A stretch of 49,278 bases of DNA, the filler included, from Porpidia crustulata (lineage: Eukaryota): NCBI GenBank assembly GCA_964255105.1. It is 2 parts of 2 records of this genome, joined end to end, with 100 filler letters (N's around TTAATTAATTAA, not from the genome) between each part and the next. Parts side by side here need not be neighbours in the genome. Positions count along the whole stretch, not along the records: positions 24,771 to 49,278 come from CAXUWE010000056.1; 1 more part is not named here. The stretch is one strand, 5' to 3'. Below, piece by piece: positions 14,608-49,226 of the stretch (its first letter is position 1; each line of letters begins with the position of its first letter). Made by a program: the position numbers and the translations under genes. The notes under the pieces were generated by a model that ran no database searches, had not been told where the DNA came from, and saw only the letters and a list, made by a program, of their open reading frames with translations.

Positions 14608-15657
14608 ATGGACATCGAGACCAAAACATTGATGGAGCTCAAGGATGAAAACAACGTCTATGGGCAATCTCGCTGCACTACACGCCGCCAGCAATGGATT
14701 GAAAGCCTTCGCACACCGCGATCATGGATTGTAGCCCTTACAGTTCATGTCTGCATGCTAGGGCTCACAGCTTTCTTGCTTTCTCTGATTTCGAGACAAT
14801 CCTCACAGAGTCACCATTCTCTCGCCGCTCCAGTCACCAAAATTCCAAACTCGTACAGTCAGTTCGACAAACATCATCACCATGTCATGACTTACTCGTC
14901 ATAGATCCTGCAAGCGGCTATGTGAGATACAAGATCGATCTACCGCCAGCCGATTATTGGGAGAATATGGTATACATGGGCGAGCCGACATATACGGGCG
15001 ACTATATGTGGAATGACTTGATGGACTGTCAGTGAAAGAAGTAAAGCGACTCGTTGCAGACGACTGACCAAAACCCTTAGATCAGGGTCTCCGGCTTGAA
15101 AAGGAGGAAGGCGAACGATTAAACATATCAGCGGCACCTTTGCCTGATGGTGGATTTGCAACGATGTTCGGTGTTTACCACAACCTGCACTGTCTGGTAA
15201 GGCTTTTTGCTTTATGATGCGAATACTTTCGATCCTATGAAGACTAGGATGATCTGGCTGAAGTTTTTATAGCGACGCATCCGCCAGCATCTTTTCGAAG
15301 ACTATTATTATGTCAATCGGACGGCGGAGGAGCGCAATGAGGATATTCAACATAATTGTACCTCAACTCACCAGTCCACCATCGACTTTAAGCGTTGAGG
15401 AGTTGGCTTATGCTTCCATAGATCACTGTCTCGAGGCCGTCCGCACGTCAATCATGTGCCATCCAGATCTGACACCACATCCGCTCCAATGGGCGGAGAA
15501 TATGCCTAACCATCCTTTGGTAGCCAATCCAAACGTCGTACGAGAATGCGTCGATTGGGACTATCTGCATGAATTTATGAAGACAAGGAAGTATCATCTC
15601 CCGCAGGTTCTGGAAGGCATGAGAGAGACAGGGCAGAAGATGCCGGGCTCTGATTAG
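14608..15657 (+). CDS. DUF3328 / UstYa-like oxidase, about 5 exons
   Basis: N-terminal TM segment. After splicing there are two HxxHC motifs: VYHNLHCL (ending at 15196) and HNYHCLEAVRTSIMCHPD, which spans the intron at ~15358-15421. C-terminal RECVDWD. Confidence 0.92.
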
Positions 15658-24670: not shown

Positions 24671-24770
24671 NNNNNNNNNNNNNNNNNNNNNNNNNNNNNN
24701 NNNNNNNNNNNNNNTTAATTAATTAANNNNNNNNNNNNNNNNNNNNNNNNNNNNNNNNNNNNNNNNNNNN
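24671..24770. other. Assembly gap with artificial TTAATTAATTAA six-frame stop linker
   Basis: 100-bp spacer made of Ns with TTAATTAATTAA centred at 24715-24726. Confidence 0.95.
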
Positions 24771-25255
24771 GAGGCAGAGCGCGGGGCTCTGCTGTCGGCC
24801 GGCGCCGGTGGAGTGCTTGCATACGAAGGATCAGGGGGTGCCGTTTTGTTATGTCAGTCTCCCTCCTATTCTTCGTCTTCTTCTTCTTCTCTCTTCTTTC
24901 AAGTAAACAAACCTAACCAACCAACCACGGCAAACAGACCCCAGCCACTACCCGCCTGTACTTCGCCGACAACTCCTACGGCTTCGTCGCAAACGGCACC
25001 TACTACGGCGCCGACGGCTCCTTTGTCAACTACAAAACGGGCCAGTATACCCTCGCTAATGGTACCGCTGGCACTTTCACGCCCGTCGGCGATGGATCAT
25101 CGACAACGACTTCTGCTTCGTCGTCGGCGGCTACGGGCTTGGTGTCCTCCACTCCGAGCGCCAAGAGTCTTGCCGCGCGACGGGAAATGGAAACGCTGCT
25201 GTGCGGATCAGTCGTGATGGCGATGCTTGGCACGGTCTTTGCTGCGCTGATCTAG
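24771..25255 (+). CDS. 3' part of a probable GPI-anchored/cell-surface protein (not in the ORF track)
   Basis: RQSAGLCCRPAPVECLHTKDQGVPFCY, then intron 24853-24937 (GTCAGT..CTAAC..CAG), then TPATTRLYFADNSYG. A Ser/Thr-rich stretch and a hydrophobic C-terminus (VVMAMLGTVFAALI*) follow. Confidence 0.75.
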
Positions 25256-43030: not shown

Positions 43031-44911
43031 TCAGGGGGCGAAAGGATCCATATCGGCATCCGTAAGAGGGCTATTTGTACCTTCCTCTAGTTTGAGCGTA
43101 AGTTGATGGGCTGTGGGGTTGGCTTGGTCGGGTGGTGGTTTTTTGCTTTCTGTTTTGTTTGGTCGCGCCTTCAGGCGGTAGACCGGGGTGCGTGTCTCTG
43201 ACTGTTCAATCTGAACACACCTCTTTTTCTTGTTGCGTTCTTCCCGTTTGGGTTTGCTAAGAGAGTCCATGACTCGACTCGGGGTTTCTTGATAGTCTTG
43301 CATTGGTCGCTGTGCTGCAGCACAGATGGTAGAATCCGGACTTCCTTTTGCGCTTGTATCTTGGGTCTTCAATAATTCCAAGGGATCGAAGTTCGGATGT
43401 TGGAGATATGGTCTAAATTATGGCTTACCTACCCTACTTATTCCGACCATGACAGCATTGTAAGTAACATGTTTGATGTTTGGATTCAGGGGTTTTGTCC
43501 GCTGTGTGCCGCAGTTCCCGCAGCGTTGTTTCTTGGCGATATAACAGCCATTTTGTTTATGCCATTTTGGGTCGTTGTCTATGTTAGGCCTGCAGCACTT
43601 TTTGCAAAGAACTTCAATATGGGACGGCTTGCGAGGGTCTCGGGTGATCGTTTCATTTATTTTGGGTTTACTTGAACTTTCGGCTCCTGGACTGTGATTA
43701 ACCCTAAAATCTTAGCAAATAAAGGTATCAATTTACTAATTACCTTTGTCGCTTTTAAGCATCTTGGAGGAATACGATTCTCCAAGCTGCTTCCTTTCTT
43801 TCGGGCTAGTTGCTGTAGAGTTTGCAAGATCAATATATACTTGAGTATTCTCGGTGAGATTAATAGCTCTCGCCCCGGTGGAATTATCAAGTGTTCTATG
43901 TTCAGAGGCACCAGAAGATTGTGGGTCCAAATCCTGAGGGCAGGCGTCTAGAAAGGACTTGTTATCGCTGTCAAGTAAGATCCTCTTCATAGCACGGTTC
44001 GAATTCCAGGTGCTGGGTTTACGAAGGATTTCCTTCTCCAGTGGCATCTTAATTGAGACTATACCTGACCCCTTCGCAGCCTGGACTGCTTTGAAAGCAT
44101 CTCGAGCCAGTCCTTGTAGTTGAGTATAATGACAAAGCTTTGGAAATCGGTTGACGAAAGACCAATGCAAGTTTTGATAGAATTGGTTATTGTAAGTGAG
44201 TCCCGCGAGGTGATGAGCAACACATATCCTATGATCTTGCTCCTTTGCGAACTTTTTTCCCCAAGGGAAAAGAAGGTTTTGTGAGTGCATAACAAAAATA
44301 AAAAGGCGAGCCAATTTTGCCGGACTTTCAGGATCGCCTGACATCCATTCCAAGTATATTTCAATACCGCTGTGTCTGCTCCAGAGGGGCAGCCGTTCGA
44401 GATTGCATATACTGAGCATTCTTCCTTGAATAGGCCTGCCGTAGAGAATCTCAACCTTTGCCAGCATATTCCTTCGTAATTTAAACAACCATGCTTCATG
44501 ACAGCGTAACATATGTTCAGGATAGTTGACTAAACCATCCACAACTTCACGACGCGCAAGGTGGTCGTAGATCAATGTTTTGCCTTTGACAAACGTGTTG
44601 GCCATGACTAACCCAATACAAGGGTCTGTTGGATCTGCAGTCTCTCCATTGTGTGGATTCTCAGTGGTAAAACTGGGGTTATGCAAATGATGAGCGATTG
44701 ACCAGTCGAAGTCTCCAGATGGCGGCACAAGTTCATCTTGACGCCTAGGTGAATTCCACAAGAGAGACTCGGTTTCTTGAAATTGGGCAAACTCATCGCT
44801 AGCATTAAACGGTCTTCGTTTCGAGTCTGACTGCACTGGAAGGGTTTGAAAGCACTCTTGATTCTGGGTGGACTGGTGGTTTACCTTGCTGGTACTGAAG
44901 CTCCAAGTCAC
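43031..44911 (-). CDS. Hypothetical protein, multi-exon, with a CxxC..CxxC zinc-ribbon exon; both ends uncertain
   Basis: The 391-aa ORF continues across a GTAATT..GCTAAG..TTTTAG intron (~43744-43705) into EVLCKKC..DPKW..KQRCGNC. Confidence 0.55.
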
Positions 44912-45639
44912 GAATGTGTGGCTCGACTTCTCTTAATCGATTCAGAGCTTCTTGGCTCAGGTGTTCCTCAGGCTCTTCTAGCCAGAAGTCGCCGAAAAGC
45001 CGGTAGCCTGAAGGACAATTGCCATCGATTGTATCTCTCGGTTTTTAATTTTTGACTGATAGCGCCATATCCAAGGCCAGTTCGCACGAGCCAGGCAATT
45101 CACATTTTTAGAAAGCAAACATGAGATTCGTTCTAGTTGCTATAGGAAAGGCTAGGTAATAAGATTGAATTTTCAGTACCCCAGGTCTAGTGCTGTGGAA
45201 GGGATTTATTCCAGGATCTCCGGCGATGAGCAAAACTGCGACGCAAGTTTGGCTCATGCCTGTTGGTGTTAATAGAGGATTAATGAAAGTTTTTGCTGCT
45301 TTTCTAATTCTTCATTTTCGTACGAACGTTCCGCAATACTTCGAAATGACGTAAAAAGGATTTGTGTTAGCGTCGACCAACCTTCAGTCACGCGGATGGA
45401 CAAATTGATCCCCCATTAATGTCTTCAAGTATATCACTGAAGTTCTGTACATAACAACATAAGATTGAGCCTTAAGCAATATAATACATTAAAAACTGTT
45501 AAAAGTTGAAGTATAATCGATTTTCGTGAGCGAATGACTTCGAAAATTCAGTAGTAAAATTTGAGGCTGTGGGCGAGAAATCAATTTGTGCGTCCGGCTT
45601 TTTCGCGTACCCGTGTGTAGTAAAGATTATCAAAAAATG

Positions 45640-45652
45640 AAAAAACAAAAAA
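45640..45652 (-). terminator. Pol III terminator of the tRNA gene
   Basis: T6-G-T6 on the minus strand, starting 3 nt after the discriminator base. Confidence 0.8.
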
Positions 45653-45690
45653 TGTAGTCAGTATGGGGGTCGAACCCATGACTTTCGCGT

Positions 45691-45700
45691 GACAATGAAT
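45691..45700 (-). other. Canonical tRNA intron at 37/38 (ATTCATTGTC)
   Basis: Lies one base 3' of the anticodon. Its antepenultimate G can pair with C32, forming the anticodon-intron pair. Confidence 0.88.
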
Positions 45701-45711
45701 TATTAGCACGA

Positions 45712-45764
45712 CTAGACAAGGTTAGGGCGGCTTAGTTTCGTACGTAGACAGGTTTTACACTGAC
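45712..45764 (-). other. 53-nt spliceosomal-type intron inside the tRNA gene (position 26/27)
   Basis: GTCAGT donor, CTAAC branch site (45725-45721) and CTTGTCTAG acceptor. Exact removal restores the cloverleaf. Confidence 0.82.
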
Positions 45765-47197
45765 CACTCTAACCAACTGAGTTAACCGACTAATCGTGAA
45801 ATACTGGCACAATTTACAATATATCAATCGTTCTATAAGTATCTATCTATTTACTAATAAGAAACGAGCACGATAATACCTCAAAACCGAGAACAGTTGT
45901 CATTACGGTCTCCAGATCATTTACGTTCTGCAGAAATCCTGTGCACAGATACACCCCTCCGGTCAAACCCTTTCTCTGCTCACCGTACCAAGTGTAAGGG
46001 CCATAGTATCGATTTCAAGCAACAATGACCGAACGAGGGATGAATACTAGTAATTGCACGTATAATCAAATGTGTAGATACGTTCTATATATTCTAATTT
46101 TTAACCCTGGCTCTAGAGCATCTTCTTTTGCTATGTAGAAACCAACTTTCCTAGGATTATGATCAGGGTGATTTCCGGTAGAGGGGTTGTTCTAGGATCT
46201 ATTATTCAACAGCCTTTCAACGCACACGTAAAGATGACAGGGGTGGAGATTTCCTACTCTACAGGGCTAGCCCTACAGCCAGAGTTTTCACCCTCTAGCG
46301 ATTCCACTCTTCTTAGATCGAACACTTACAATCACCATGCTTGATGCTCAGCCATTTGCCCCCCAATTGACCGTGATATTCCAAAACTCTGCTCCCACTT
46401 AACTTCCCCCTCGTGCTCCTTTGACGCTTCTCCTTACTCTACTATCCCCACACCTGTCAAATCTGCGAACGCCAAGCCACTAAATTTTTTCAAGAAACCT
46501 CCCGGGCAAGTGCCAAGGGGATCCCTCCAGGATTGTTAGGGTGTAAGCCCCCGAAGCCCATACCCTACAGGGTCTTAAGCGGGTATCTCCGGGAGAGGTA
46601 TTTAGCTCTAGCCCTAGTTTCCAGATCCGACAGGCGAGGGGATACCCCTTGACTGCTCTCACTTTCCTTTATCGCTCTTTATTTACTCCCTCTATACCTC
46701 CTGTAAAGTAGCCCCGCTCTCGCTCTTGGATGTGTTGGCGGATCAGGTATTGAATTGATTGCATTGATATTTGATGTTGTTATTAGGAAGTTATCTAGGG
46801 GGTGGAACAGGAAATAGGAAACTTTCTACTAGCGTCCCCAGTCCCATGTGGCAGAGATTGCCAATTAACTCCAAATACCAACAGGATGAAAGTACTCACT
46901 GTCCTCGTGCTTGTCTCGCATTGCATCCGTATTTTTCCTTCATCGATTGCATCTTGCGTTGTAATGGAAGCTTGACATTGAAACACGCGTCGAAGAGATG
47001 GCTACTTTATTTGGAGCTATGTCGACAACAGGAAATGGTATGTTGTTCGATTGTTAATGTTAGGTTATTCTCGACCGTATGACGGTTGCAAAGGTATTAA
47101 TTTGATTCATGTTGAAATTTCGTCTGATCCTAACAGTCTCTCTAGGGTTCGTATTTTTTCGGTATAGAACGCCCTTCTCATTGACAGCGGCCAACCC

Positions 47198-49075
47198 TCA
47201 CATCCGCTGCTTGCGGAATACATGTTCAAACATGAAGGCCGCAAGCATTCCCAATATACCGACAATGAGATAGATCAGTATATCTAATCTTCTCAACTGG
47301 AATTTTGGGTCCCCTGGTCCTTCTCCTGGTACGACCTCAAACAGATATATGTTTATGTCCTGCCAATTTTGCTGCGCTTGCTCAGATGGGTTATCATTAG
47401 GAATTATGGCTCCCTCAGCTATTTCGGCCATCGGATTTTCGGCTGGTGGCGTGGCATTAGCCGCCTGATTGGGAGGTAATTCTGGAGGCTCCATGAGTCC
47501 TCCACTCGAATGAATTCTCTCTGTGTTATCTCCAAAGACCACAGCTCCTTGGTTATATTTGGAACCCTTGATAGGGCGGAGCTCACCGCGTCGACGGAGC
47601 GTGTGCACATGCCTAAAGCATCTTTGGCCCATTTCTGGATCGCAAGAGAATGAATCCTCCTTTGGCCACTCGAGCGGCCCGTTGAAGCACATCTTGAAGT
47701 CCGAGATGGAAGCAAATGAAGACCCGAGTAAATCTTGAAGTTGTACGACCGACTCGATACAAGCGACCAGCAAGTCTTCGCCCGTAGGTATCGAATTCCA
47801 GACGCTGCATATTGGGGTCTTGGCTTTAATAATCTCACCAAAGCCAATACCATGGAAGACTACGATGCCAGATTCGTTGATCAAATCTTTCCAATTCCCT
47901 TGAAACTTTCGTCTGGTCTCTTTTCGCTCACCACAAGCGGTTCCCCTGGCCGCTACATTGAAAAAGTCCCAACCAACCAAGCCAGCACGCTTAAGAGGTT
48001 TTTCGCTAACAATGTCGAACCTCATAGCATCTATAGTAGCCCAAAGCTCAGTAATCCATGCAGACAGATGTACAGCTTCTTGCCCTCTCGAAGATACATA
48101 GAGTTTGGGGTCTTTGAAGTCTTTTCTAATCGCTTGAAGAGCGGCTTTACTTGCAGTATGCTCATTTCCATTGACCGCGAATGGAATTGGGTTTTCGAGG
48201 GTTGGAATTACCTCTTGCTTCGCCCAGTATAAGGCTCTGACATGGATCATTTGCAATATAACACAGATAGTGGGAACTAGCCATCCCCGACAGTCATTCA
48301 CGTCGTACATTACTGACGGTTGGTCCATGATTTCTGAGAGGATAGCCTCATATGAGACTTTGCTGGCCTCTCTGATCTCTGCGGCCTTAGACTTGTTGAT
48401 AAGCCAATTCGCATTTAGTCCGCCCCCAACAAAATGAGAACCGTTGATGTTAGCCGATATTCCACTGAGCACGAGTCGACTTCTCTGTGCTCCTAGCGAC
48501 GGACCATGAGGACGCAATGATTGGCCGTAATCAGAATCCTGGGTCCCAAGGCGTACATGTACTTCGGAACTGTAGCCAAGAAATGTTCTACATGAAGACA
48601 AGGTTTCAAACTCGTCAAGGTCCGACGATTTCAGCCGGGGTAGGTTTCTCAGCGATTCTAATGAGATTGACGTTCTTTCGTTGCTTGCATAAAGCGCGTG
48701 CCATTGGACAGAATCCGGTGGATATTTCACACGGGGCTGAGTTACCGGGTAAATTATGCTCGAAAAACCTCGGAGAACATATCCACCGTCGCTCAAAACT
48801 GGGTGTATCACACTGCCTAAGCTGGTCATGACGTTAAAAGGAAGCTCAACACCGATCTCATTCTGTCGTGGAGGGATTGGGAAGCCATAGGCCAGGCTCA
48901 ATCCAGTAAAAAGCTGATACCAACAGATGTCGGAGCTTCTTCCCACAACTTGAGCTGGAGAGTATTTCAAGTCGAATTGCAATAGACTTGACTGCCGCAA
49001 GGTGAAGTCGGAGTGCGATAGCTCCCCCGGAATAGGTAACCGAAATACTAGGCCAAGCCAAGCTACTTGATGCAC
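47198..49075 (-). CDS. Fungal hypothetical protein, apparently 5'-truncated (no ATG), with a C-terminal TM segment
   Basis: 625-codon ORF with QVAWLG..FR, CWYQLF..AYGFPIP.R..GVELPF..M, RTFLG, YD..D.RGWLV and LVGWDF motifs of a widespread ascomycete family. An in-frame stop lies about 10 codons upstream with no ATG in between. Confidence 0.7.
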   Translation of the reverse strand: MHQVAWLGLVFRLPIPGELSHSDFTLRQSSLLQFDLKYSPAQVVGRSSDICWYQLFTGLSLAYGFPIPPRQNEIGVELPFNVMTSLGSVIHPVLSDGGYVLRGFSSIIYPVTQPRVKYPPDSVQWHALYASNERTSISLESLRNLPRLKSSDLDEFETLSSCRTFLGYSSEVHVRLGTQDSDYGQSLRPHGPSLGAQRSRLVLSGISANINGSHFVGGGLNANWLINKSKAAEIREASKVSYEAILSEIMDQPSVMYDVNDCRGWLVPTICVILQMIHVRALYWAKQEVIPTLENPIPFAVNGNEHTASKAALQAIRKDFKDPKLYVSSRGQEAVHLSAWITELWATIDAMRFDIVSEKPLKRAGLVGWDFFNVAARGTACGERKETRRKFQGNWKDLINESGIVVFHGIGFGEIIKAKTPICSVWNSIPTGEDLLVACIESVVQLQDLLGSSFASISDFKMCFNGPLEWPKEDSFSCDPEMGQRCFRHVHTLRRRGELRPIKGSKYNQGAVVFGDNTERIHSSGGLMEPPELPPNQAANATPPAENPMAEIAEGAIIPNDNPSEQAQQNWQDINIYLFEVVPGEGPGDPKFQLRRLDILIYLIVGILGMLAAFMFEHVFRKQRM

Positions 49076-49226
49076 GATTGTAGTTAGGAGGTTCCTAACA
49101 TTTTATACCTTAGACGCTTTGAAAATTTTAGTCAGTGCGTTAGTAGAGGGTATCCCGTTCACTTAGCCATATTTTGTCTAGTAGTATCGATTTCAAAAAT
49201 CATATTCAATTTATCGTTTCACAACG

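Follow-up and report, generated by a model that had tools for sequence, protein, structure and literature searches.

A tRNA-Ile(AAT) gene of Porpidia crustulata with a probable spliceosomal-type intron at the D-stem/anticodon-stem hinge and a canonical tRNA intron

We analyzed a 49,278-nucleotide (nt) stretch of DNA of the eukaryote Porpidia crustulata (assembly GCA_964255105.1), called the window below, in which two parts of two records are joined by 100 filler letters; positions 24,771 to 49,278 come from CAXUWE010000056.1. The minus strand of the window carries a tRNA-Ile(AAT) gene that is interrupted twice: a 53-nt insert separates the D stem from the anticodon stem at their hinge, and a 10-nt insert lies at position 37/38. 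An initial annotation of the sequence had described this gene with both inserts, a GTCAGT donor, a CTAAC branch site, a TAG acceptor and a T6 terminator, and every detail of this anatomy was borne out. The features of the gene are as follows.

45655..45791, minus strand: whole tRNA-Ile(AAT) gene of 137 nt with two inserts between its three exons, delimited by ARAGORN after removal of 45712-45764 and by the pairs of the cloverleaf.
45765..45791, minus strand: exon 1, 27 nt, tRNA positions 1-26 plus 20a, with the 5' strand of the acceptor stem, the D arm and G26.
45784-45773, minus strand: A-box-like sequence TAACTCAGTTGG, with A10 in place of G10.
45712..45764, minus strand: 53-nt spliceosomal-type insert between G26 and U27, letter for letter as in the initial annotation.
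45759..45764, minus strand: donor GTCAGT at the start of the insert, unchanged in the related organism X2 (see below).
45721..45725, minus strand: branch-site motif CTAAC, followed by 9 nt up to the end of the insert; the candidate branch A is 45722, 10 nt from the last base.
45712..45714, minus strand: acceptor TAG at the end of the insert, unchanged in X2.
45701..45711, minus strand: exon 2 (positions 27-37), with the 5' strand of the anticodon stem, TCGTG, and the loop CTAATA up to A37, including the anticodon AAT.
45691..45700, minus strand: 10-nt canonical tRNA intron at 37/38 (ARAGORN i(39,10)).
45655..45690, minus strand: exon 3 (positions 38-73), composed of A38, CGCGA, AAGTC, the T arm ATGGG-TTCGACC-CCCAT, ACTGACT and A73.
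45676-45666, minus strand: B box GGTTCGACCCC, within exon 3.
45652-45647, 45645-45640 and 45637-45632, minus strand: three T6 runs resembling terminators of RNA polymerase III (Pol III), the first one 3 nt past A73.
45818..45823, minus strand: TATATT, a TATA-like element 27-32 nt upstream of tRNA position 1.

Exon 1 reads as the acceptor strand AGTCGGT, U8 and A9, the D stem ACTC/GAGT with the D loop AGTTGGTTA, and G26. We take the two internal elements to be the A and B boxes on the strength of their consensus sequences, and TATATT presumably has the promoter role of such elements in the tRNA genes of fission yeast and plants. The two inserts place the A box and the B box about 108 nt apart instead of about 45, a spacing that TFIIIC tolerates.

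It had been suggested that standard tRNA finders may miss or mis-call such a gene, and this is what we observed. ARAGORN with default settings found no tRNA anywhere in the window, and Rfam gave nothing at gathering score for this gene, nor any tRNA match even at E<=10 on 45550-45900. When introns were allowed, ARAGORN mis-called the uncut gene as a tRNA-Asp(atc) with a 44-nt intron. After removal of 45712-45764, the call became tRNA-Ile(aat) with a 10-nt intron, in agreement with the cloverleaf that had been predicted to appear, and with both inserts removed all 21 stem pairs are standard. As a control for specificity, every GT..YTRAY..AG stretch of 38-90 nt was removed in turn on both strands of the window and of the 15 metagenomic loci described below, a total of 3681 removals; within the window, tRNA calls spanning the cut were obtained only at the 45655-45791 locus.

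We then compared the gene, at 80% likeness, with the contigs of two runs: X1, which contains the whole stretch and may be its source, and X2, which comes from another, related organism. Two further runs, X3 and X4, gave no match. A 23-kb contig of X2 matches 45661-45791 together with patches of both flanks and is thus syntenic. Both introns and the flanks have diverged heavily between the window and X2, whereas the exons are nearly unchanged. The hinge insert of X2 is 49 nt long and differs from that of the window by 15 substitutions and 4 indels. None of these 19 events falls on positions +1 to +6 (GTCAGT) or -3 to -1 (TAG), and a single one touches the branch site, turning CTAAC into CTAAT, which still fits a branch consensus. 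The probability that no more than one of the 19 events would fall on the 14 signal positions is 0.008. The 10-nt intron has likewise changed, by 4 substitutions and 1 indel. Neither X1 nor X2 showed a direct exon junction bridging 45712-45764, a result that carries no weight since exon 2, with its 11 nt, would not suffice to anchor such a junction.

The sole listed exon difference in X2 is C28 to G, and G28 is also found in most of the metagenomic loci, where its partner has changed too. The 21 letters of exon 1 at 45771-45791 are identical in X2 (differences in 45765-45770 would not be listed). Contigs cover 45654-45683 without a difference, and the 37-mer 45654-45690 has one; an unlisted change must therefore lie within 45684-45690. 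Since this segment holds G42, the partner of position 28, the change, which was not itself seen, is likely to compensate for C28 to G. In X1, the only contig over 45624-45812 is one resembling the source of the window and no other contig lies on the gene; the insert is therefore not repetitive in that genome. Neither the gene nor the insert has a further copy within the window. The 53 nt had also been considered as a possible fragment of a transposon, a candidate that we rejected on these two grounds. A tRNA pseudogene or a short interspersed nuclear element is not supported, for the same reasons and because the stems of the window gene are intact.

More distant relatives were recovered by scanning metagenome contigs for the exon letters on both sides of the insert, separated by any 35-65 nt and with no requirement for GT or AG. 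This yielded 15 loci, of which 14 are tRNA-Ile(AAT) genes with a GT..AG insert of 43-65 nt at the D-stem/anticodon-stem hinge. The remaining one (L004) and the single match of the same pattern in 596 Gb of prokaryote genomes (L016) are ordinary tRNAs, a tRNA-His in the case of L004, whose downstream match arose by chance. Because L002 is identical to L012 and L008 to L010, the 14 genes represent 12 distinct metagenomic loci. The position of the intron is recurrent: the insert lies at 26/27, as in the window, in nine loci and at 25/26, after a slide of one letter, in five (L003, L007, L013, L014 and L015). This split is independent of the two exon types, A1-U72/A10-U25 and G1-C72/G10-C25. The flanks of the window gene match L001, L002/L012 and L006-L010, and we conclude that these loci are orthologous and that their intron bodies have diverged beyond recognition. 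Among the metagenomic loci, too, the insert bodies could not be aligned. The intron at 37/38 measures 0-25 nt in the other loci and is of unrelated sequence; L015 has the hinge insert and no 37/38 intron. In L003, L013, L014 and L015, the Rfam model RF00005 reached its gathering score (35.9-41.1 bits) with ends identical to those that we had set by hand; it skips 70-86 central nt in these four loci, so that the insert is not placed by Rfam.

Two of the metagenomic genes contain a third insert, located in the T loop, which we spotted by eye.

L005:504-686, minus strand: tRNA-Ile(AAT) gene with three inserts, at the hinge, at 37/38 and in the T loop.
L007:588-781, plus strand: tRNA-Ile(AAT) gene of 194 nt with three inserts, at the hinge, at 37/38 and in the T loop.

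The T-loop insert of L005 is 53 nt long, lies at 54/55 and reads GTAAGT..TTAAT..TAG, with borders fixed by the T loop. That of L007 is 52 nt long, lies at 57/58 and reads GTTGGT..CTAAT..CAG; its borders are certain to one letter, since a slid reading (GG..CA) restores the T loop equally well. Removing these inserts restores TTCGACC exactly in both genes.

The splice signals were compared in 15 distinct inserts, that is, 13 hinge inserts including that of the window and the two T-loop inserts. G1, T2 and G5 were found in 15/15, T6 in 14/15 and A4 in 13/15; at the acceptor, Y-3, A-2 and G-1 were all found in 15/15. The donors among the loci are GTCAGT, GTTAGT, GTGAGT, GTAAGT, GTAAGC and GTCCGT, and all 13 distinct hinge inserts contain a YTRAY branch motif, mostly CTAAC, whose A is 10-12 nt away from the end of the insert. 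All 15 real inserts passed the signal test that only 675 of 300,000 shuffled inserts (0.2%) passed. The three splice signals are thus selectively kept. Conservation restricted to donor, branch site and acceptor in relatives had been proposed as a check on the initial annotation, and it was found both in X2 and in the 14 metagenomic tRNA-Ile(AAT) genes.

The exons, on the other hand, evolve as a single cloverleaf. We aligned the exons of the window gene with those of eight loci, leaving out L001 (T-arm deletion), L011 (cut short), L005 and L007 (T-loop inserts), the duplicates L010 and L012, and L004. Across the split exons 189/189 stem cells pair, and 8 of the 21 pairs have changed on both sides. 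No shuffle out of 500 reached both values, and controls in which the structure was slid paired in 33-50% of the cells. The sequence of the window itself supplied the structure string, which favors the window row, not the other eight. The exons are therefore under purifying as well as compensatory selection.

The insert does not behave as a structured element. Folded alone, it reaches -1.8 kcal/mol, and 194 of 200 shuffles fold at least as well. An arm that stays in the mature tRNA was ruled out because the insert is unstructured and its body unconserved. The fold of the whole precursor was no better than that of shuffles (z -0.79). In the minimum-energy fold, GCCGCCCUAACC of the insert (45720-45731) pairs with GGUUAGAGUGGU of the D arm in exon 1 (45765-45776, both on the minus strand). 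CUAAC is complementary to GUUAG of the D loop, so that pairing between branch site and D loop is available to every such intron. X2 has lost the GCCGC portion of the pairing.

Overall, we consider it likely, judging from its sequence and that of its relatives, that 45655..45791 is a functional nuclear gene for tRNA-Ile(AAU) in a fungus resembling filamentous ascomycetes, with a genuine U2-type GT-AG intron of 53 nt at the hinge and an ordinary intron of 10 nt at 37/38. The spliceosomal-type reading put forward in the initial annotation is supported by the conservation of nothing but the signals in the insert, by co-varying exons, by the insert not being a repeat and by the lack of a conserved bulge-helix-bulge. 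For the transcription of the gene and its two splicing events, including their order and the machinery involved, we infer the following pathway. Transcription of the 137-nt gene by Pol III would be directed by the internal A and B boxes and would end at the T6 runs. The spliceosome would recognize GUCAGU, UAG and the branch A of CUAAC and release the 53 nt as a lariat; the U6 RNA of fission yeast, likewise a Pol III transcript, is spliced in this manner. Once the 53 nt are lost, the tRNA body could fold, and the tRNA splicing endonuclease (TSEN) and tRNA ligase would then remove the 10-nt intron.

Several observations weigh against this interpretation. L006, L008 and L009 are near-identical orthologues, which reduces the 15 inserts to about 11 independent introns. 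The split between 26/27 and 25/26 calls for either one-base intron sliding or separate gains. The window gene has A10-U25 where the A box usually has G10. With the inserts removed, ARAGORN (introns allowed) called tRNA-Ile(aat) in only 7 of the 14 metagenomic loci; five gave no call and two were mis-called, L005 as Ser and L014 as Asp, both of which parse by hand as an Ile cloverleaf. The contigs of X2 are interrupted within exon 3, and the 37-mer 45654-45690 is present at about double depth (25 versus 11-12), indicating that X2 has at least one further gene with the same exon 3 that differs from the 37/38 intron onward. Furthermore, L007 has two mismatches in the D stem and one in the acceptor stem, and the T arm is damaged in 3 of the 12 distinct metagenomic loci, all of which keep the hinge insert.

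L001:588-710: about 12 nt of the T arm deleted.
L002:588-718 (identical to L012): 1-nt deletion, leaving a T loop of 6 nt.
L011, from 588: ends after the 5' strand of the T stem.

Since L001 and L002 are orthologous to the window locus and nevertheless damaged, the gene appears to be dispensable in some species, and these fungi probably have other tRNA-Ile genes.

The damaged T arms, the poor D stem of L007 and the second X2 gene would all be expected if the gene were dead or dying, the 53 nt having inactivated one of several tRNA-Ile(AAT) copies while uninterrupted copies supply the tRNA and GT..AG is incidental or a relic. Indeed, the available text of a review states that insertions in the D or T arm of eukaryotic tRNA genes are usually taken as signs of pseudogenes (PMC4090602). 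We nevertheless consider this explanation unlikely. A dead gene would not be expected to keep its exons nearly unchanged between the window and X2 next to heavily diverged introns and flanks, to show complete pairing with eight compensatory pairs over nine genes, or to retain signals in all inserts that shuffles so rarely attain. In addition, X1 offers only the contig resembling the source of the window over the gene. The only degenerate donor, GTCCGT, is confined to L001, the gene with the deleted T arm, and this fits with splice signals being kept only while the tRNA is in use.

It is also conceivable, if improbable, that the intron is spliceosomal and the precursor is made by RNA polymerase II (Pol II) reading through the intergenic region, with RNase P and RNase Z freeing the tRNA and the Pol III transcripts being dead ends. 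The spliceosome normally acts on Pol II transcripts, and the gene lies inside a 2.2-kb stretch without long open frames whose flanking frames, 47198-49102 and 43736-44932, are both on the minus strand, that is, the strand of the tRNA. The elements around the gene are rather those of a Pol III gene. T runs follow the window gene and 9 of the 12 distinct metagenomic genes at distances from a few bases to about 40 nt; L001 has no run of at least four T in the 140 nt downstream, L009 has no T run in the 6 nt visible past A73, and L011 ends too early. The A and B boxes and the TATA-like element at -27 to -32 point in the same direction, and the absence of five or more T in a row from all inserts (the longest run is 4) may do so as well. 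Moreover, U6 demonstrates that Pol III transcripts can be spliced.

We regard it as very improbable that the insert is removed without the spliceosome, either by the tRNA endonuclease acting on a relaxed fold resembling a bulge-helix-bulge or by an unidentified nuclease and a ligase. Non-canonical tRNA introns are removed without the spliceosome in red algae and nucleomorphs, according to the available part of PMC4090602. In the 26/27 group, 3-4 of 4 central pairs are possible between AGAG of the exon and the insert's pyrimidine-rich end, with three potential G-U pairs outside. However, the inner helix is absent (0-2 of 3 pairs), and in the 25/26 group the central helix has only 0-2 of 4 pairs. 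The position of the mismatch shifts from gene to gene, so that what is conserved is pyrimidine richness and not a helix. A bulge-helix-bulge site at 26/27 of the window gene itself was rejected, with 3/4 central, 2/3 outer and 0/3 inner pairs. Such a mechanism would require neither GTNAGT nor a branch motif at 10-12 nt, yet both are conserved, and the T-loop inserts of L005 and L007 carry the same signals at other sites. A site of the Ire1/HAC1 type was discarded by eye, the 5' junction GTG|GTC not having the CNG|NNGN loop pattern of such sites.

Among the closest known systems to the spliceosomal intron proposed here is the U6 small nuclear RNA (snRNA) of fungi. Spliceosomal introns in U6 were first found in Schizosaccharomyces pombe, and as many as four can occur in a fungal U6 gene, their signals being canonical and the rest of their sequence not conserved, as reported in the accessible part of PMC5855946. 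The tRNA genes resemble this system in being of Pol III type, in the short intron with canonical signals and an unconserved body, in the possibility of several introns and in positions that are partly lineage specific (compared with the same text of PMC5855946). They differ from it in that the tRNA host is not part of the spliceosome, in that a second, protein-only splicing system is needed, and in that excision from the tRNA is a prediction from sequence. Because the tRNA does not belong to the spliceosome, the usual account of intron origin, reverse splicing into the RNA of the active site, is not directly applicable.

Similarly, spliceosomal introns occur in the ribosomal DNA of ascomycetes (Bhattacharya et al. 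2000, as cited in the available text of PMC5855946). These, too, are GT-AG introns in a structured, abundant RNA of ascomycetes that is not made by Pol II; their host is a ribosomal RNA (rRNA) transcribed by RNA polymerase I, in contrast to a tRNA of about 75 nt. Introns of the U3 small nucleolar RNA are common in Pezizomycotina, with experimental proof in two species (PMC5832005, accessible part). They share with the inserts described here the splice-site and branch motifs, the few characteristic positions and a small structured host RNA, and differ in the RNA class, judging from the same part of that paper. The nuclear-type tRNA genes of Cyanidioschyzon merolae and of cryptophyte and chlorarachniophyte nucleomorphs also have inserts in the D arm, T arm or anticodon stem and up to three introns per gene, and the available part of PMC4090602 describes these introns as 3-24 nt long or as bulge-helix-bulge introns and ascribes their removal to the tRNA endonuclease. 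Unlike them, the inserts reported here measure 43-65 nt, have GTNAGT..CTAAC..YAG and lack a conserved bulge-helix-bulge.

In the literature that we consulted, spliceosomal introns and tRNAs are kept apart: the former are assigned to Pol II transcripts and to a few snRNA and rRNA genes, the introns of tRNAs to position 37/38 and TSEN. The accessible part of PMC5855946 lists spliceosomal introns only for the U1, U2, U5 and U6 snRNA genes and for rRNA genes. The word spliceosome is never used in the available text of a 2014 review on tRNA introns, where D- and T-arm insertions are considered probable pseudogenes except in red algae and nucleomorphs (PMC4090602). In a 2023 review on tRNA, the introns of eukaryotic tRNAs are located at 37/38 (PMC10275265), a 2025 paper treats the three intron types as unrelated (PMC12530127), and both, in the parts available, leave spliceosomal introns out of tRNAs and have TSEN and tRNA ligase excise the canonical 37/38 intron. 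The 10-nt insert at 45700-45691 belongs to this canonical class; the 53-nt insert, at 26/27, does not. A search of open-access papers and bioRxiv turned up no tRNA gene reported to carry a spliceosomal intron, in agreement with the initial annotation, which knew of no established case.

If the interpretation is correct, tRNA joins the substrates of the spliceosome, and the gene provides the second natural case, after U6, of a spliced Pol III transcript. The maturation of this tRNA would then depend on both splicing systems, and it would offer a clean system for studying intron gain in noncoding RNAs outside the spliceosome. Since ARAGORN and Rfam miss or mis-call such genes, the tRNA gene sets of such fungi may be incomplete, and some of the "pseudogenes" with D- or T-arm insertions merit reexamination.

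More tentatively, these genes may belong to an old class of spliceosome-dependent tRNA genes in ascomycete-like fungi, whose Pol III transcripts would contain one or two spliceosomal introns (hinge and T loop) in addition to the TSEN intron. This possibility is open to considerable doubt. The introns could have been gained by reverse splicing into an abundant nuclear tRNA followed by reverse transcription, and pairing of CUAAC with GGUUAG of the D loop may have helped. If the class is real, three introns would have to be removed by two unrelated machines to make one tRNA. Possibly, its members are the sole tRNA-Ile(IAU) genes in some species, in which case the decoding of AUU and AUC would be tied to the activity of the spliceosome.

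The window has a G+C content of 45-49% and encodes proteins with the Pfam domains UstYa, DUF6601, ULD_2 and MFS_1, families whose known range points to a filamentous ascomycete. The donor of the tRNA insert had been said to be shared with mRNA introns at 15028-15080 and 24853-24937. For the former this is plausible from the sequence: removal of the segment (53 nt, GTCAGT..CTGAC..TAG) connects two open frames in phase, its length and donor are those of the tRNA insert, and the exon downstream of it has a weak match to the UstYa profile (positions 98-140, E 0.006).

14730-15657, plus strand: gene of the UstYa family (mycotoxin biosynthesis) with a likely 53-nt intron at 15028-15080.

The second segment, 24853-24937, is a candidate mRNA intron only in the sense that it is compatible with the frame. 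Runs of N are found just upstream of it, at 24671-24714 and 24727-24770. Finally, a dispersed repeat with a sharp end at 45604 occupies 45393-45604, about 50 nt downstream of the tRNA gene. A second copy was looked for in the window and none was found; in X1, matches to the repeat with 10-31 differences per 88-181 nt occur on at least seven further contigs.

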